Assembly (NCBI GenBank): GCA_943353165.1
Contig: CALRAM010000001.1
Location: 109,803-173,802 of the forward strand
From: an uncultured Candidatus Saccharimonas sp.
Lineage (GTDB): Bacteria; Patescibacteriota; Saccharimonadia; Saccharimonadales; OMJO01
Direction of reading: 5' to 3'
DNA length: 64,000 nt
Under the pieces are notes generated by a model. That model worked only from the letters and a program-made list of their open reading frames with translations, was not told the origin of the DNA and searched no databases. A program made the position numbers and the translations under genes. This document shows positions 854 through 61,803 of the stretch, piece after piece (positions within the stretch are counted from its first letter, which is position 1; every line of letters begins with the position of its first letter).

Positions 854-861
854 TATAAAGA

Positions 862-885
862 GTCGGGTATTGTACCCGACTTTTT
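862..885 (+). terminator. Rho-independent terminator hairpin after tRNA-Tyr (centre of a longer palindrome, 829-914)
   Basis: GTCGGGTA-TTG-TACCCGAC followed by TTTTT. Confidence 0.6.
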
Positions 886-1020
886 ATATGGTTCCGGGCT
901 GTAGGATACGAACCGTACGGCGTAGCCGTGGTTCGGTGGAATGAGGACGCGCGCAGATGCTTGCATCGAGCACGCCGGAATGGATAAAGGACGAAGTCCG
1001 CTATCCTACACCCTGCACCA
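886..1020 (+). repeat. GC-rich tRNA-flanking structured element, copy 1 (ORF-less), ending in an exact 18-nt copy of the tRNA-Tyr 3' end
   Basis: It shares motifs with 37917-38055 and 61326-61484: GAACC-loop-GGTTC, GGTTCGGYG, GCRCAG-hairpin-CGAG, and AAAGGACGAAGTCCGCTATCC. Nt 1003-1020 equal 836-853. It is visibly GC-rich against AT-rich flanks. Confidence 0.6.
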
Positions 1021-1097
1021 ATTTAACAATCCGACATTTGACGGGTTTTTAAATTGCTCCCGGTCTAAAAAATTCGATTTTTGAGCTAGGTGAATTA

Positions 1098-2983: not shown

Positions 2984-5023
2984 ATGGCGCAAATAATAAC
3001 ATTTGATTTCAGCCCAATAGGTTTTGACGAGGTGCGTGATTATCATTACGGCCGTGACTGGCCTGTTGTCTATATACTTGAGTCAAATAACGAAGCATAC
3101 GTCGGTGAAACCACGAATTTTTATAACCGAAGCAGGCAGCACTATGAAAATCCCGACAGAAAGAGGTTAAAAAATGCTCATATTATTACAGATGAAACAT
3201 ATAACAAGTCTGCCGCTTTAGATATAGAATCATTTCTTATAACACATCTTGCCGCTGAGGGTACTTTTTTATTGCAAAATAGAAATGACGGTATACGTGA
3301 TCACAACTACTATCAAAGGGATGAGTACCAGGCAAAATGTGAAGTTATCTGGAAAGAACTGATTGAGAAAAAACTTGTTCAAAAAGAAGTTTATGAGATA
3401 GAAAATAGTGACCTATTCAAATACTCACCATATAAGTCATTGACTGAAGAACAACACGATTTTGTTAAGCAGTTGGTTGAAGATATTGAAAAGGATAATG
3501 CCAAAACGTATGTAGTAGAAGGTGCACCAGGCACCGGGAAAACAATCCTCGCCACATATCTTGTGAAGTATTTGAAAGATAGACGAAGCACAAAACATTT
3601 AAAGATTGCGCTTGTGGCGCCAATGTCGAGCTTGCGCGGGACAATACAGCAGGTTTTCCGTGCAACAGCCGGCCTTAAAGCAAATATGGTGATTGGACCT
3701 AGCGGGGTAGCAAAAGAGGCATACGATCTTGTAATTGTTGATGAGGCGCACAGACTTAAAAAGAGAAGAAACCTCGGCGCTGGATTTGGAGCATTTGATA
3801 ATGTTAATAAAAAACTTGGGCTTTCAAAAGAATCCACTCAACTTGACTGGATTCTTGGGAGTTCAAAGCGTCAGGTCTTGTTTTATGATCAAGGACAGAG
3901 TGTTTTGCCCTCAGACATTCATGACATAGATTTACGTAGCAAGGGTGCGCAATTTTATACGCTCACAAAACAGATGCGCATACAGGCTGGTGAAGAATAT
4001 GTTCTACTAGTCGAAGCTATACTTAATCAAAGGGAAATTATTAGCACAAAACTAAATAATTATGAATTTCAAATATTTGATGATGTCGCAGAAATGCACC
4101 ACGCGATCAGGCTTAGAGATAAAGAGCACGGACTCTCTCGCCTTGTTGCAGGTTTTGCATGGCCATGGTTTACTAATCCAGCAAGTCCTGGCCCAAAACA
4201 AGATTATGATATTGAGATCAATGGTTATAAATTAAGGTGGAATAATAAAACAAAGGACTGGGTGAACTCAACTGGTGCTATTAATGAAGTGGGGTGTATT
4301 CATACAGTACAGGGCTATGGAATGAACTATGTGGGTGTGATTATAGGCCCCGAGCTTTATTATGATGAGAAAAATAAACGAATAACGGTAGATAGAAGTA
4401 AATACTGTGATCGCAATGGGCATGCTGGTGTTACGGACCCTGATGAGCTAGAGCGGTATATTAAGAATATATACAGAACATTGCTTACTCGTGGTATAAA
4501 AGGTACCTATGTATATATTGTTGATGAAAATCTCAGGAATTATTTTAAGATGCTGTTAAACCAAGAAACTGCTCAAGAGCCGCTGGCTGAAGTATTTTAT
4601 AGTGAAAATAAAGTATTGGACTTCCTTAAAATGAAAATGGTCGGAATACCTTTGGTTGGTTCTGCCCCTTGTGGCAACCCAATGCTCGGGGAAGAGAATA
4701 TTGAAGAATATATTGAAGTCGAAAAAAGCAAAATTAGACCCGGCTACAATTACTTCATACTACGTGCGATTGGTGACTCGATGAACCTTGCCGGAATAAA
4801 TGATGGCGATTTAGTACTCTGTCGTCAGCAATTAAAGGCCGACACTGGTGACAGGGTGGTTGCACTCTTAGGTGACAATGTGACAATAAAAGTATATGGG
4901 CCTCGTAAAGACGGCGTGCGATTTCTTTTGCCGAACAGCTCGAATAGTGAGCATGCCCCTATAGCCCCCAGTGAAGGCGATAGTGTACAGGGCATTGTGC
5001 AAGAAGTTTTAACTGCAGATTAA
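2984..5023 (+). CDS. three-domain protein: N-terminal GIY-YIG-like (COG3410 type), DUF2075/Schlafen-like P-loop helicase-type ATPase, C-terminal LexA/UmuD-type S24 self-cleaving peptidase domain
   Basis: 679 aa. PVVYILESNNEAYVGETTNFYNRSRQHY (GIY-YIG-like); Walker A GAPGTGKT; Walker B LVIVDEAHRL. The C-terminus aligns by eye to LexA: IPLVGSAPCG (Cys563-Gly564, nt 4670-4675, UmuD-like cleavage pair), GDSM (Ser599, nt 4778-4780), VTIKV (Lys636, nt 4889-4891). It starts 4 nt after the mazG stop. Confidence 0.8.
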   Translation: MAQIITFDFSPIGFDEVRDYHYGRDWPVVYILESNNEAYVGETTNFYNRSRQHYENPDRKRLKNAHIITDETYNKSAALDIESFLITHLAAEGTFLLQNRNDGIRDHNYYQRDEYQAKCEVIWKELIEKKLVQKEVYEIENSDLFKYSPYKSLTEEQHDFVKQLVEDIEKDNAKTYVVEGAPGTGKTILATYLVKYLKDRRSTKHLKIALVAPMSSLRGTIQQVFRATAGLKANMVIGPSGVAKEAYDLVIVDEAHRLKKRRNLGAGFGAFDNVNKKLGLSKESTQLDWILGSSKRQVLFYDQGQSVLPSDIHDIDLRSKGAQFYTLTKQMRIQAGEEYVLLVEAILNQREIISTKLNNYEFQIFDDVAEMHHAIRLRDKEHGLSRLVAGFAWPWFTNPASPGPKQDYDIEINGYKLRWNNKTKDWVNSTGAINEVGCIHTVQGYGMNYVGVIIGPELYYDEKNKRITVDRSKYCDRNGHAGVTDPDELERYIKNIYRTLLTRGIKGTYVYIVDENLRNYFKMLLNQETAQEPLAEVFYSENKVLDFLKMKMVGIPLVGSAPCGNPMLGEENIEEYIEVEKSKIRPGYNYFILRAIGDSMNLAGINDGDLVLCRQQLKADTGDRVVALLGDNVTIKVYGPRKDGVRFLLPNSSNSEHAPIAPSEGDSVQGIVQEVLTAD

Positions 5024-5146: not shown

Positions 5147-5680
5147 CTACTTTTGTGAAGTGTAAAAAATGCGAGTCTTGTTGGTAAGCAATTCATAATC
5201 CTCGTCGCTGTATGCGCAAATAATTATTTCGCTAATTGGGGCGACTGACTCTTGCTGGTAGCTGTGTATGGCCTCATGTGCTAGATCGATAGCTTCTTCT
5301 TTTGGATAGCCATAAACGCCAGCTGAAATTAGTGGGAAAGCAATGGAGCTTGAGCCACTTTGCTCGGCTAGCCACAAGGACTGTAAGTAGGCGCTCTTTA
5401 GCAGCTCTGAGGTGTTGCGACTGTTATCATAAATTGGCCCTACCGCGTGCACAACATATTTAGCAGGCAAATTGAATCCAGGAGTAATTACTGCCTCGCC
5501 AGTCTCGCAAATACCAATGGTGGTGCAGGCCTCGGCCATTTCGTGCCACCCAGCAGCATCAAAAATAGCCCCGCATACACCAGAGCCACCTAAAAGTTGA
5601 GTGTTTGCAGCATTAACAATACAATCAACCTCCAGCTTTGTTATATCGCCTCGGTGTACTTTGATTTTATTTTTTTGCAT
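5147..5680 (-). CDS. macrodomain protein (ADP-ribose binding / O-acetyl-ADP-ribose deacetylase, YmdB-like)
   Basis: Motifs: GDITKLEVDCIVNAANTQLLGGSGVCGAIFDAAG and IAFPLISAGVYGYP. The ORF extends to 5725, but the Met at 5680 (MQKNKIKVHRGDIT) fits the family N-terminus. Confidence 0.85.
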   Translation of the reverse strand: MQKNKIKVHRGDITKLEVDCIVNAANTQLLGGSGVCGAIFDAAGWHEMAEACTTIGICETGEAVITPGFNLPAKYVVHAVGPIYDNSRNTSELLKSAYLQSLWLAEQSGSSSIAFPLISAGVYGYPKEEAIDLAHEAIHSYQQESVAPISEIIICAYSDEDYELLTNKTRIFYTSQK

Positions 5681-5744
5681 AGCATTATTATAGTCTATAT
5701 TCCTGCTGCAAATAACCCCAAACACTAAACCCCAAAATTCACAA

Positions 5745-37809: not shown

Positions 37810-37884
37810 TGGGATGTGGCCAAGTGGTAAGGCACCAGTTTTTGGTACTGGCATTCGGGGGTTCGAATCCCTCCATCCCAGCCA
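37810..37884 (+). tRNA. tRNA-Gln (anticodon UUG)
   Basis: Acceptor TGGGATG/CATCCCA; anticodon stem CCAGT/ACTGG with loop TTTTGGT; T-arm GGGGG-TTCGAAT-CCCTC; encoded CCA. Confidence 0.8.
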
Positions 37885-37892
37885 CAAAATGT

Positions 37893-37916
37893 CCACCTCA
37901 TGTAGGTGGTTTTTTT
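37893..37916 (+). terminator. Rho-independent terminator after tRNA-Gln
   Basis: CCACCT-CATGT-AGGTGG followed by TTTTTTT. Confidence 0.65.
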
Positions 37917-38055
37917 GTAGGTTTGACTGCGGTCTATTAGAACCCCACGACAAAGTCGTTAAAAGGGTTCGGCGTAGAGATGCTAGGCGCAGGAGTTTAC
38001 TCCGAGCATGGCTGAACAGAAAAGGACGAAGTTCGCTATCCCTTCAACCCAGTCA
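37917..38055 (+). repeat. GC-rich tRNA-flanking structured element, copy 2 (ORF-less), ending in a diverged copy of the tRNA-Gln 3' end
   Basis: GAACCC...GGGTTC hairpin (37940-37970), GGTTCGGCGTAG, GCGCAG-GGAGTTTACTCC-GAG, and AAAGGACGAAGTTCGCTATCC (38021-38041; 20 of 21 nt match 986-1006). Nt 38038-38055 match 15 of 18 nt of 37867-37884. Confidence 0.6.
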
Positions 38056-60700: not shown

Positions 60701-61162
60701 ATGAAAAAGAAGCCAAACATCCCCAAACAGATAGTCAACAGACGCGCCAAGCACGATTACGAGCTGGACGATTCTTTGGTGGTGGGTCTGGAACTAACTG
60801 GAGCCGAAGTAAAAGCCCTAAGAATGGGACATGGTCATCTGCGAGGGTCGTATGTAACAGTAAAAGACAACCAGCTCTGGCTGCTAAATGCCACTATAAC
60901 TGGATCTAATTCGGCACCATTAACAGACGAACAAAAAGTCCGCACACGCAGGTTACTGGCAAAGAGAAAAGAAATAGATGCATTTATCTCTGCCAAACAG
61001 CAGGGAAGATCCATAGTACCCTTGCAGCTTTTGACGGGTGGACGATACATAAAACTACGAATGGCAGGTGGACGAGGCAAAAAACTGCACGACAAACGTG
61101 CTTCTCTAAAAGAACACGACGAAAAAAGAGCTATGAGCGCCGCCATAAAAGCAATGCGCTAA
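60701..61162 (+). CDS. smpB: SsrA-binding protein SmpB
   Basis: NRRAKHDYELDDSLVVGLELTGAEVKALR, KRKEIDAF, KLHDKRASLKEHD. Confidence 0.9.
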   Translation: MKKKPNIPKQIVNRRAKHDYELDDSLVVGLELTGAEVKALRMGHGHLRGSYVTVKDNQLWLLNATITGSNSAPLTDEQKVRTRRLLAKRKEIDAFISAKQQGRSIVPLQLLTGGRYIKLRMAGGRGKKLHDKRASLKEHDEKRAMSAAIKAMR

Positions 61163-61210
61163 GCATTATTTGCTAGAAACCACTCTGTTCGCTATAATTT
61201 ATCACTGTAA

Positions 61211-61285
61211 TCCGGAGTAGCTCAATGGTAGAGCACCGCCCTGTTAAGGCGATTGTTGCCGGTTCGAGTCCGGCCTCCGGAGCCA
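61211..61285 (+). tRNA. tRNA-Asn (anticodon GUU)
   Basis: Acceptor TCCGGAG/CTCCGGA; anticodon loop CTGTTAA; T-arm GCCGG-TTCGAGT-CCGGC; encoded CCA. Confidence 0.85.
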
Positions 61286-61293
61286 AAATAATA

Positions 61294-61325
61294 GTCCCAG
61301 CCAAAGGTTGGGGCTTTTATTTTGC
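61294..61325 (+). terminator. terminator hairpin after tRNA-Asn
   Basis: GTCCCAGCC-AAA-GGTTGGGGC followed by TTTTATTTT. Confidence 0.6.
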
Positions 61326-61484
61326 CGTTCTGGAAACCAGAACCTCGAACCGCAGGTTCGGTGTAGCGAACTCACGCACAGGAGCTTCCGCCGAGAAAAT
61401 GAGGAAACGTGCCGCAGGCAGCCCCGGCCTCTCTTCGAGTCTGAGCCTGAGGGCTCATCCCTCATAGTTGAATGACCGGAGCCA
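61326..61484 (+). repeat. GC-rich tRNA-flanking structured element, copy 3 (ORF-less), ending in CCGGAGCCA (the tRNA-Asn 3' end)
   Basis: CTCGAACC (61344-61351) mirrors GGTTCGAG of the tRNA T-loop (61261-61268). It also has GAACC-GCA-GGTTC, GGTTCGGTGTAG, GCACAG-GGAGCTTCC-GCCGAG, and AATGAGGA...GCCGCAG (compare AATGAGGACGCGCGCAG at 940-956). Confidence 0.55.
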
Positions 61485-61560
61485 TAAATAACACCACTGC
61501 TTGCCGCGGGCTTTTTTATGATTTCTGGCTCGATATAACAGCCTGGGCTATAATTTAGAT

Positions 61561-61803
61561 ATGAACGACAGCCGTATCAACCCAGCCACAATTACTGGCC
61601 GCATAAATGCCAAAGCTATTGAGCTCATAGCGGCAAACCCAGAAGGTATTCGCTGGGCGGATTTGCTAAAACAAATTCAAATCTCAGACCAGAGCTACCA
61701 CCCCAAAACGGTCAATGGCTGTGTCTGGAAGCTAGTCGAAAAGTTTCCTGACATAGTCTATAAACCAGAAAAAGGCTTGTTTCGATCCGTCAAATATAAA
61801 TAA
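61561..61803 (+). CDS. small winged-helix-like protein (Mrr_N-like pattern)
   Basis: 80 aa. AIELIAANPEGIRWADLLKQI...VNGCVWKLVEKFPDIVYKPEKGLF. Confidence 0.4.
   Translation: MNDSRINPATITGRINAKAIELIAANPEGIRWADLLKQIQISDQSYHPKTVNGCVWKLVEKFPDIVYKPEKGLFRSVKYK

Follow-up and report, generated by a model that had tools for sequence, protein, structure and literature searches.

The tRNA-Asn locus

The block analysed here (copy 3, 61286-61520) lies directly behind the tRNA-Asn(GTT) gene (61211-61285, forward strand; called by ARAGORN and scoring 69.4 bits with the Rfam tRNA model) in the window, that is, the whole 64-kb stretch of DNA that was analysed. The gene smpB (60701-61162; Pfam SmpB) precedes the tRNA gene, and all parts of the block are given for the forward strand. 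The last 18 nt of tRNA-Asn (61268-61285, tRNA positions 59-76) are repeated downstream and are the source of the segment termed T2. Terminator A (61293-61325) consists of a 10-bp hairpin (61293-61315) and a T run; with its A-rich trailer and the following TTTTG it forms a palindrome lengthened toward the CCA end of tRNA-Asn. The next part, termed rcT (61324-61352), was recognised by inverted-repeat analysis and by reading of the sequence as a degenerate inverted copy of the 3' part of tRNA-Asn. Within it, CTCGAACCG (61344-61352) is exactly complementary to CGGTTCGAG of the tRNA-Asn T loop (61260-61268), and outside 61344-61352 transitions are the sole departures from the ideal complement.

A diverged type-1 core (61355-61418) starts 70 nt past the end of tRNA-Asn. 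The 5' half of the T arm, GGTTCGG, opens it; the third helix is broken, and the 3' tail is a variant also carried by unit 1 of a sister strain (L005). The mini-hairpin TGCC-GCA-GGCA (61410-61420), of the C-GNA-G type, occupies the position of the fourth helix (P4), and its loop class is enriched family-wide. The T2 copy is split. Its 5' half (61422-61431) reads CCCCGGCCTC versus GTCCGGCCTC at tRNA positions 59-68, the latter also being found at this site in the sister strains, and its 3' half (61476-61484, CCGGAGCCA, positions 68-76 including the CCA) repeats 61277-61285. The two halves are separated by a 44-nt palindromic insertion (61432-61475), identified from the sequence and from strain comparison, which contains the T-loop-like TTCGAGTC, the hairpin GAGCC-TGA-GGGCTC and an inverted T-loop-like segment, and which is kept in L004, L005 units 2 and 3, L010 and L130. 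Downstream of 61484 the strains diverge from one another; in the window, Terminator B (61499-61517) follows, with its hairpin at 61499-61511 and then T6.

All repeats and hairpins of the original prediction were found in the sequence where it had placed them, and several were reassigned to other parts. The core that it divided into two modules is homologous to the other cores, but the second module is no clean duplicate, since 61396-61425 is the variant 3' tail mentioned above. The CGAG and TTGAAT motifs are present but belong to the insertion between the two halves of the tRNA 3'-end copy, and the repeat CCGGAGCCA is merely the 3' half of the 18-nt tRNA-end copy (61422-61431 plus 61476-61484). 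Pairing of ATGAGG with CCTCAT appears in the centroid fold of copy 3, but is not preserved at the same locus in the sister strains L004, L005 and L130. The predicted fold of copy 3 was no better than that of shuffled sequences (DNA z-scores -0.02 and -0.77, versus -2.2 and -3.0 for copy 1). Copy 3 is a worn element, the most degenerate of the three copies in the window, and it is probably no longer active.

Homology of the three copies and comparison with tmRNA

Copy 1 (854-1052, forward strand, 78.9 bits) lies behind tRNA-Tyr (768-853) and was delimited by direct and inverted repeats. It comprises a terminator (861-885), rcT (886-914), a hairpin (915-929), the core (930-1002), an exact 18-nt T2 (1003-1020, 18/18) and a second terminator (1028-1052). 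Copy 2 (37885-38055, forward strand, 69.4 bits) lies behind tRNA-Gln (37810-37884), was found as an inverted repeat, and consists of a terminator (37893-37916), rcT (about 37917-37946), a hairpin, the core (37966-38037) and a T2 (38038-38055) matching the tRNA-Gln end at 15 of 18 positions. The three copies have diverged from one another, with compensatory changes. Each is preceded by a canonical intrinsic terminator; a second one follows copies 1 and 3, whereas copy 2 has the upstream one. Prediction of sigma-70-like promoters returned none for the three units of the window.

Short repeats alone are weak evidence of homology at this scale, the chance expectation for any 9-mer in 64 kb being about 0.5; the motif GGTTCGGYGKAR gave three matches against 0.73 expected, a number reached in 3 of 100 shuffles. 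Homology was assessed with a covariance model (R1) built from 50 units from other genomes together with copies 1 and 2, copy 3 being left out. The model matched 930-989 (78.9 bits, E = 1.5e-13), 37966-38025 (69.4 bits, E = 1e-11) and 61355-61418 (29.0 bits, E = 6.7e-4), the last score being weak compared with the 66-87 bits of typical members, and the rest of the window contained no match better than E = 7. With this match and the same order of parts, the view that copy 3 is a third copy of the element behind tRNA-Tyr and tRNA-Gln was upheld.

Copy 3 resembles tmRNA (ssrA) in that it adjoins smpB and contains sequence like a tRNA 3' end. It differs in lacking both a tRNA-Ala-like acceptor stem and a tag reading frame, and its core is present at three places in the 64 kb, following three different tRNAs. 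ARAGORN reported six tRNAs and no tmRNA in the window; in Rfam searches, no tmRNA match reached the gathering score anywhere in the window, and nothing relevant was found in 61100-61700 at E values up to 10. Searching the core with the Rfam 15 covariance models, including the canonical units L052, L068 and L095, returned tRNA matches only (E up to 1). A tmRNA or other known RNA was therefore rejected, in agreement with the earlier statement that the block is not the tmRNA.

Architecture and distribution of the units

The family is defined here by a core hairpin matching R1 that lies on the strand of the tRNA, less than 130 nt downstream of it, with an inverted copy of the tRNA 3' part before the core and a copy of positions 59-76 after it; copy 3 has the core match as well as the rcT (61324-61352) and the split T2. 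The full order is tRNA, intrinsic terminator, rcT (tRNA positions about 46-76), small hairpin, GGTTCG (T1, the 5' half of the T arm), core (a conserved hairpin of 60-75 nt) and T2 (a copy of the last 18 nt of the tRNA). Size (135-205 nt) and order of parts are constant. More than 90 units were found, nearly all in Saccharibacteria MAGs and always on the strand of the tRNA, and the preceding tRNAs represent 15 amino-acid identities. Five hits in viral contigs lay within ORFs, away from any tRNA, were matches by chance and scored nothing with R1, and a phage or viral origin was rejected. Literature searches for an earlier description of the module found nothing relevant, and it is apparently undescribed so far.

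Among 58 pattern hits, all with a same-strand tRNA upstream of the core, the tRNA ended 63-103 nt before the core in 53, and in 29 the core was followed by 17 nt or more of the tRNA end (17-23 nt), repeated exactly. The repeat is exactly 18 nt long in type-1 units (positions 59-76) and begins at T54 (23 nt, L093) or C56 (21 nt, L124) in other unit types. The unit ends are tRNA-derived (TGG...GAACC and GGTTCG...NCCA), T2 begins with ATCC or GTCC, and in many units T2 is shortened or interrupted at positions 66-74. With the tRNA ends that drove locus selection left out, units were present behind 17 of 47 tRNA ends, about one third. Presence is patchy, in that a given tRNA type is followed by a unit in certain genomes but not in the rest. 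Within a genome the copies have diverged and are not near-identical, which indicates that there was no recent burst of movement and counts against a reading at the DNA level. T2 nevertheless tracks species-specific changes of the tRNA exactly while the rest of the unit has diverged, as in the tRNA-Met units of L055, L068 and L014.

Core structure, inverted copy and loops

Pairing in the core reached 90.9%, and both sides of a pair were changed in 139 cells, versus 46 in shuffles (0 of 500 shuffles reached 139) and at most 19 in slid controls. The core hairpin is under selection, compensatory changes having kept it in more than 50 genomes and at 15 tRNA identities. Its sequence is strongly conserved, with an invariant internal loop and tandem G-A pairs; these features would also suit a protein-binding RNA, which counts against a reading at the DNA level. 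Wobble pairs numbered 18 G-U versus 7 A-C (p = 0.04), a relation that is reversed if the bulged helix register is counted, and for assigning the structured strand the counts are weak evidence, no more than suggestive. The junctions of the units are purine-rich on the tRNA-sense strand.

Complementarity of rcT to tRNA positions 46-76 was seen in all of 54 units, with 74% Watson-Crick pairs and no G-U bias, as expected of a decaying DNA repeat. The acceptor part of the stem that rcT and T2 could close had about 50-65% Watson-Crick pairs at positions 66-72. It is possible to draw the whole unit as a four-way junction that this stem closes, and single-sequence RNA folds were inconsistent from unit to unit. 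Mini-hairpins of the form 5'-C-GN(N)A-G-3', mostly with GNA triloops, formed the P4 hairpin in 22 of 41 units (shuffle mean 1.1) and the variable hairpin in 19 of 54 (shuffle mean 3.3); the third helix was closed exclusively by C-G (35) or T-A (17) around a TT loop (Y-TT-R). Neighbouring terminators, which act as RNA, had GNRA tetraloops and not a single GNA triloop, and by contrast with them the loops of the units are of DNA type. In DNA, hairpins of the d(C-GNA-G) type have a far greater stability than their RNA counterparts, and they are found where priming takes place on single-stranded DNA (PMC13037366, PMC3201870).

Cargo arrays, strain turnover and search for a partner enzyme

At some loci units occur in tandem, with cargo between one T2 and the next rcT. 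The L005 array reads tRNA-Asn, unit, P-loop kinase, unit, DHH, unit, 2-Hacid_dh; the L014 array has tRNA-Met, three units and three membrane-protein genes, and L011 is a further array with cargo. At tRNA-Asn, the window, L004, L005 and L130 encode 100% identical SmpB yet carry different cores and cargo. The units mark sites at which accessory genes are gained and lost between strains. Exceptions to the cassette rule were a Metallophos gene without its own unit in L004 and ORF139 of L080, located inside T2; extra tRNA-end fragments and accessory genes occur near units at L045 (Arg) and L080. A survey of JGI metagenomes with the smpB-tRNA spacer as pattern returned one contig (L130), too few for junction statistics, and an exact-protein look-up with the 80-aa downstream ORF returned window-type loci only. 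Neither excised circles nor matched empty sites were recovered, and in the comparison of filled and empty sites at tRNA-His and tRNA-Trp the flanks were too diverged between species to be aligned.

Linked enzymes were sought by all-against-all clustering of 618 neighbouring ORFs and by Pfam searches on the cargo and 20 ORFs of the window, which together covered a small part of each genome. Neither an integrase, an Xer-like recombinase nor an HUH enzyme was linked to the units in the cargo, the 20 window ORFs or the recurrent neighbour families; one Xer-like family was present in 3 of 72 loci and was not adjacent to units. No tyrosine recombinase was found beside the arrays, the array cargo genes are not recombinases, and the inserts of 135-205 bp contain no ORFs. 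A tblastn search with an IS200 TnpA query, likewise confined to a small part of each genome, was negative, no tnpB, iscB or IS110-like ORF was present in the units, the cargo, the neighbourhood or the 20 scanned window ORFs, and no integrase remnant was seen in any examined locus. The lack of a linked recombinase, of an excised circle or empty site, and the cargo that breaks the cassette rule count against a reading of the units as DNA sites.

Interpretation

Our preferred reading, which we hold tentatively, is that the unit may be a folded single-stranded-DNA attachment site, comparable to integron attC and CTXphi attP(+), and a mimic of the tRNA gene's 3' end in its duplex form. On the tRNA-sense strand, rcT would pair with the direct copies T1 (GGTTCG) and T2 (positions 59-76), giving a stem that would imitate the double-stranded 3' end of the gene; the core and the P4 mini-hairpin would branch from this stem at the position of the T loop, and the variable hairpin would cap it. 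We infer single-stranded DNA as the form in which folding takes place, T2 as the site of recombination and, as the enzyme responsible, a recombinase encoded elsewhere in the genome. Recombination of the folded site with the tRNA gene, or with a T2 copy already in place, would leave the order tRNA, cargo, rcT, module, T2, a cargo-free unit then being the minimal cassette. Recombination as a folded single strand receives only indirect support, from the DNA-type loops, the strand-specific structure and the lack of a promoter. With the same reserve, copy 3 may accordingly be seen as a unit in decay, belonging to a module that acts at the DNA level and is tied to tRNA genes. A wider form of this reading, which we regard as speculative, is an integron-like cassette system without an integron in Saccharibacteria. 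Small single-stranded-DNA cassettes, perhaps from natural transformation, would fold into the mimic and be inserted at the matching tRNA gene by a recombinase encoded elsewhere or by a host Xer-type enzyme, with the conserved core as the handle that the recombinase recognises.

The serious rival, although an unlikely one in our estimate, is a structured small RNA made by read-through of the tRNA terminator, in which rcT and T2 would form a minihelix identical to the acceptor/T-stem of the neighbouring tRNA and the core would replace the T loop and bind a protein, the whole acting as a tRNA mimic, e.g. a decoy, a processing substrate or a sensor. The strong covariation of the core with its invariant internal loop and tandem G-A pairs, the excess of G-U over A-C pairs in the first helix, the purine-rich junctions on the tRNA-sense strand, the tracking of tRNA changes by T2 in otherwise diverged units and the four-way junction that can be drawn would all agree with such an RNA. 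It is less readily reconciled with the position of the units behind intrinsic terminators with no predicted promoter, the poorly paired acceptor part of the closing stem, the frequent truncation or interruption of T2 at 66-74, by which a CCA end is not required, the loops, which are GNA triloops and Y-TT-R rather than GNRA or UNCG, the patchy presence for the same tRNA type and the lack of an Rfam match. Inert scars, left where integrase elements entered tRNA 3' ends and lost their interior so that attL and attR arms were joined with the tRNA-end repeat as att core, are improbable. A direct repeat from the T loop to the CCA is a classical mark of integration into a tRNA gene, and the units carry one; the accessory genes and extra tRNA-end fragments nearby (L045 Arg, L080) and the decayed look of copy 3 also fit. 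Preservation of the core by compensatory changes in more than 50 genomes and at 15 tRNA identities is not expected of scars, however, and the constant unit size and order of parts and the lack of any integrase remnant likewise speak against them. Direct repeats of tRNA ends have been described for tycheposon islands (bioRxiv 10.1101/2020.12.28.424599).

A guide RNA, either a TnpB/IscB omega RNA or a bridge RNA, would have the core as scaffold, T2 as an 18-nt 3' guide and, as target-adjacent motif, the TTCGA of the T loop, which precedes T2 in the tRNA gene. A conserved scaffold is indeed followed directly by an 18-nt segment identical to a neighbouring DNA target, and the core, by separating the T-loop motif from T2, might prevent self-targeting. 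Known omega RNA scaffolds are much longer than the 60-75-nt core, the intact neighbouring tRNA gene would be a perfect target, T2 is often truncated, there is neither a promoter nor an Rfam match, and the idea, very unlikely in our estimate, was rejected for want of a tnpB, iscB or IS110-like partner ORF in or near the units. Retroviral primer-binding sites are 18 nt long, as is the type-1 repeat, which could then be the equivalent of a primer-binding site in the trace of a tRNA-primed retroelement, copied from the tRNA up to a modified A58. This idea is scarcely credible: a reverse transcriptase was not seen, the structure-carrying strand has the repeat in tRNA sense, and a primer-binding site of retroviral type was rejected on the repeats that start at T54 (L093) or C56 (L124) in other unit types.

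Relation to known systems and significance

The units were compared with several known systems. They share with integron attC sites imperfect inverted arms around a variable terminal structure, conservation of structure over sequence and strand-specific folding, and with cassette arrays the gene-plus-site arrangement beside a fixed chromosomal site, the empty cassettes and the strain-variable content. They differ in having neither an intI gene nor attI, no R''/R' boxes (RYYYAAC / GTTRRRY), arms that are copies of the neighbouring tRNA 3' end, and a branch of 60-75 nt of conserved sequence where attC has a few extrahelical bases; most units, moreover, have no cargo. CTXphi attP(+) and other Xer-exploiting elements likewise have inverted half-sites about 90 nt apart and, as is proposed for the units, a single-stranded-DNA fold imitating a duplex host site, and the integrated order is again host site, cargo, inverted arm, spacer and direct arm; the target of the units, however, would be a tRNA gene instead of dif, their spacer is the conserved structured core, and there is no phage genome.

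Islands that target tRNA genes, such as the tycheposons of Prochlorococcus (bioRxiv 10.1101/2020.12.28.424599), also have direct repeats of the tRNA 3' end and accessory cargo, with successive insertions pushing older ones outward and partial tRNA fragments scattered in the region. The units differ in their size of 135-205 bp, the lack of an integrase, the inverted tRNA copy and covarying core, and their occurrence at many tRNA identities within one genome; by the classical marks of a tRNA-gene island, the direct repeat is present and an integrase inside the insert is absent. REP/REPIN sequences with RAYT and palindromes derived from IS200/IS605 are similarly short, non-autonomous, hairpin-forming intergenic DNA after genes and terminators, with long-lived diverged copies and presumed action on single-stranded DNA. 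For the units, however, no RAYT or TnpA was found and no conserved GTAG-type end was shown, and they are strictly tied to tRNA genes, whose own sequence they copy. MITEs and REPINs are marked by near-identical copies with terminal inverted repeats and a short target-site duplication, a description that the units do not fit, the copies in the window being diverged and the flanking repeat being 18 nt of tRNA.

The accessory genes of Saccharibacteria differ among strains, even though the genomes are tiny and few mobile elements have been recognised in them. The units, each taking up roughly 150-200 bp, coincide with places of gene gain and loss between strains and lie behind about one third of the tRNA genes, a third that would serve as cassette landing pads if the cassette system outlined above were true. 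Should the units prove to be RNAs, they would make up a new family that mimics the tRNA minihelix. As folded-DNA attachment sites they would explain gene exchange in these epibionts, provide genetic tools with a natural landing pad in an already transformable organism, and add to the structure-specific recombination sites a new class made from the sequence of tRNA genes.

The block behind tRNA-Asn

tRNA-Asn(GTT) was located at 61211-61285 by ARAGORN and Rfam, with smpB directly upstream (60701-61162), and the region proved to match the original description: two terminator hairpins are present (61293-61315 and 61499-61511, the latter followed by T6), CGGTTCGAG (61260-61268) is mirrored at 61344-61352 by CTCGAACCG, and the 3'-terminal nonamer of the tRNA, CCGGAGCCA, is found again at 61476-61484. 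The block was rightly held not to be a tmRNA, ARAGORN reporting none anywhere in the window; Rfam returned six tRNAs and nothing else on the whole window at gathering score, and no meaningful match on 61100-61700 at E values up to 10. That it is the third copy of a tRNA-flanking element was borne out by R1, a covariance model of the type-1 unit core (50 units of other genomes plus copies 1 and 2, behind tRNA-Tyr and tRNA-Gln), which scored copy 3 at 29.0 bits. The CGAG and TTGAAT motifs ascribed to the block are present (+) but lie inside a 44-nt palindromic insertion (61432-61475), which in the window species splits the 18-nt tRNA-Asn repeat after position 68. The fold of copy 3 does not surpass that of shuffled sequence, and copy 3 was concluded to be a decayed or recombinant family member.

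The insertion is built of T-loop-like sequence and was also seen in loci L004, L005, L010 and L130 of other genomes, L010 coming from a MAG labelled Patescibacteria UBA4664; in the Arg unit of locus L045 a 31-nt hairpin occupies the equivalent place. The 5' arm (61295-61303) of the terminator behind tRNA-Asn holds TCCCAGCCA, the final nine bases of tRNA-Gln. This match may be due to chance, with ~0.5 expected per window, or it may be a sign that tRNA-end palindromes gave rise to some of the terminator hairpins. GCTATAATTTA, with a -10 box, occurs ~10 nt upstream of the tRNA-Asn start (61191-61201) and ~4 nt upstream of the ATG of the next ORF (61547-61557), suggesting a duplicated promoter module with nearly leaderless transcripts. 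An ORF of 80 aa (61561-61803, +) directly after the tRNA-Asn end copy and one of 139 aa inside the tRNA-Asn end copy of L080 (3300-3719) lack Pfam matches; our guess is that they may be winged-helix proteins.

Units behind tRNA-Tyr and tRNA-Gln

Units also stand behind tRNA-Tyr (768-853) and tRNA-Gln (37810-37884), and the order of parts is common to the Tyr, Gln and Asn blocks: intrinsic terminator, a complement of the T arm and of the acceptor 3' strand of the unit's own tRNA, a small hairpin, GGTTCGG, a conserved core and a direct copy of the last 18 nt of the tRNA. The core consensus in the window was GGTTCGGYG-N12-GCRCAG-N10-CGAG, and R1 scored copies 1 and 2 at 78.9 and 69.4 bits, respectively. 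The tRNA-end copy matched at 18/18 positions behind Tyr (1003-1020) and 15/18 behind Gln (38038-38055); no end repeat was found for the Thr-GGT and Trp tRNA ends in the window.

Some 750 bp beyond the tRNA-Tyr unit comes a heliorhodopsin gene (1772-2551, +; PF18761, 271 bits), in what is apparently a Saccharibacteria genome. A 679-aa fusion of GIY-YIG, Schlafen-group-3-like helicase and S24 peptidase domains (2984-5020, +) and, next to it, a Macro-domain protein (5150-5725, -) are also encoded, and together the two look like an accessory block of defence type on the downstream side of tRNA-Tyr.

Distribution across genomes

A core-pattern scan of one genome per species gave at least 118 stretches. 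Among the matches listed, a same-strand tRNA was upstream of the core in 58, ending 63-103 nt before it in 53/58, and an exact 17-23-nt tRNA-end repeat was downstream in 29/58, mostly of 18 nt and equal to tRNA positions 59-76. A unit thus has the appearance of a copied T arm and tRNA 3' end into whose T loop ~65 nt of structured sequence have been inserted, between position 57/58 and 59. Carriers among the matches listed were labelled Saccharibacteria, Saccharimonadia or Saccharimonadales, apart from a few MAGs labelled Patescibacteria UBA4664, 'bacterium', Dormiibacterota, Limnocylindria or Babeliales, labels that may be binning errors. The unit-bearing tRNAs were those for Ser, Met, Asn, Asp, Leu, Ala, Lys, Val, Tyr, Gln, Arg, Ile, His, Trp and Gly. 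Leaving aside the tRNA ends through which loci had been selected, a unit was present at 17/47 tRNA ends, and tRNAs of one type carry a unit in certain genomes and lack it elsewhere.

R1 found 87 units in the 72 candidate unit-bearing loci and 7 more in 6 of the remaining 53 loci; it found none in the other 47, which are chance pattern matches. Many tRNAs with no R1 core behind them nevertheless have a repeat of their end 134-205 nt downstream. Other core types fill the core slot in unit 3 of L005, in L114 and in the middle unit of L014, and in some unit types the repeat begins at T54 or C56, not position 59; the junction falls in the T loop in every type, its exact position varying by type. 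Rfam gave no match on canonical units of other loci, and no published description of the units was found in the literature searched.

Structure of the core

In a gap-free alignment of 52 cores (A2), the core is one irregular hairpin, consisting of a first helix (pairs 12-52 and 13-51), two tandem G-A pairs, a second helix (16-20 with 44-48), an invariant internal loop (CGCRCA opposite GAGCA) and a third helix (27-31 with 34-38) closed around TT. Standard pairs occupy 90.9% of all cells. Two-sided changes were counted in 139 cells versus 46 in shuffles, with 0/500 shuffles as high, and in at most 19 cells in slid controls. The core is a selected structure.

Strain alleles and arrays

The tRNA-Asn locus was compared across contigs with identical SmpB protein, and four alleles were found. 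A canonical core is present at tRNA-Asn in the sister strains L130 and L004 (82 bits with R1 in L004), differing, by our reading, from the Tyr core of the window at only a few positions; the window and most other identical-SmpB contigs carry a diverged core between GGTTCGGTG and GGCCTC. A Metallophos gene lies downstream of the repeat in L004. In sister strain L005 there is an array in which units alternate with genes: after tRNA-Asn comes a short unit followed by a P-loop kinase gene, then a type-1 unit followed by a DHH gene, and last a unit of a different core type followed by a 2-Hacid_dh gene. Cargo in the arrays of L005, L014 and L011 is positioned between one repeat and the next inverted copy. 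It consists of ordinary accessory genes (GNAT, kinase, BaxI, DHH, Metallophos, dehydrogenase, FHA protein), with no recombinase among the array cargo.

The repeat is frequently truncated or interrupted at tRNA positions 66-74, for example by the 139-aa ORF as cargo in L080, by hairpin insertions in Asn and Arg units, or by simple truncation. In L050 (7407-7600; MAG labelled Babeliales), an intact tRNA-Ser(CGA) is followed after only 5 nt by a canonical core with a tRNA-Ser(TGA) 3'-end copy, fused to it with neither terminator nor inverted copy in between, as if sequence between neighbouring units had been deleted. A repeat thus need not match the tRNA next to it.

Two units of L014 (4425-4587 and 7496-7658), 3.07 kb apart behind one tRNA-Met, have in common a 163-nt block of 90% identity comprising core, tRNA-end copy and ~60 nt downstream, and differ upstream of the cores. 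As the block reaches ~60 nt past the repeat, the exchanged segment exceeds the repeat. One strain, L004, has a 54-nt insertion upstream of the tRNA-Asn gene (3511-3565), in which the first 13 nt of the tRNA are repeated, a palindromic hairpin takes the place of the D-loop, the 3' side of the D-stem is repeated and a new -10 box is supplied, a mirror at the 5' end of what units do at the tRNA 3' end.

Nature of the units

The anatomy and distribution of the units, the covariation, the loop types, the arrays and the strain turnover are direct observations. A reading on which terminator read-through yields a tRNA-minihelix-like small RNA would fit the strong core covariation with its invariant loop, the tandem G-A pairs and an excess of G-U over A-C (18 versus 7, p = 0.04), a count that reverses once the second helix is also scored in its bulged register. 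We consider this reading rather unlikely, if the strongest competitor. In favour of DNA, a canonical terminator precedes every unit, no unit has its own promoter-like site, the inverted copy lacks wobble bias (87 G-U, 66 A-C, 185 other) and the CCA end is dispensable. The third helix is closed solely by a 5'-pyrimidine/3'-purine pair around TT; Y-TT-R forms two-residue loops in DNA, and CUUG is an RNA tetraloop too. Mini-hairpins of the form 5'-C-GN(N)A-G-3', mostly with GNA triloops, make up P4, the fourth helix just before the tRNA-end copy, in 22/41 units (shuffle mean 1.1) and the variable hairpin before GGTTCG in 19/54 (shuffle mean 3.3), whereas the adjoining terminators carry GNRA tetraloops and zero GNA triloops. 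In DNA, d(C-GNA-G) hairpins have exceptional stability, far above that in RNA; they need the C-G closing pair and are found at single-stranded-DNA priming sites (PMC13037366; PMC3201870). The loops of the units are of DNA type.

Integron attC and CTXphi attP(+) sites form a hairpin stem imitating the duplex target site, and their integrated order is host site, cargo, inverted arm, spacer, direct arm, which is also the order in the units. From this design and the matching order, the units are tentatively read as folded single-stranded-DNA attachment sites of small cassettes recombining at the tRNA 3' end; we infer single-strand folding, a crossover inside the repeat and an enzyme. On the tRNA-sense strand the inverted copy would pair with GGTTCG and the 18-nt repeat, giving a stem that would mimic the duplex 3' end of the tRNA gene, with the core branching off at the T-loop position and the variable hairpin capping the tip; exactly this arrangement was predicted when copy 1 was folded as single-stranded DNA. 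Units without cargo would be minimal cassettes, and copy 3 a worn one. No recombinase or HUH enzyme was found within the limited sequence examined. That the units are inert scars of conventional integrative elements is improbable, an RNA guide for an unknown effector very improbable, and a tRNA-primed retroelement hardly to be expected.

The closest functional likeness is to an attC or CTX-type folded site, although the units have neither R boxes nor intI, as in integrons, nor dif, as in CTX-type sites; they also resemble tRNA-anchored islands such as tycheposon islands (bioRxiv 10.1101/2020.12.28.424599), but their insert has no integrase. The units, a family absent from Rfam, are assigned to attachment modules targeting tRNA genes, with a real chance that they are something more unusual.
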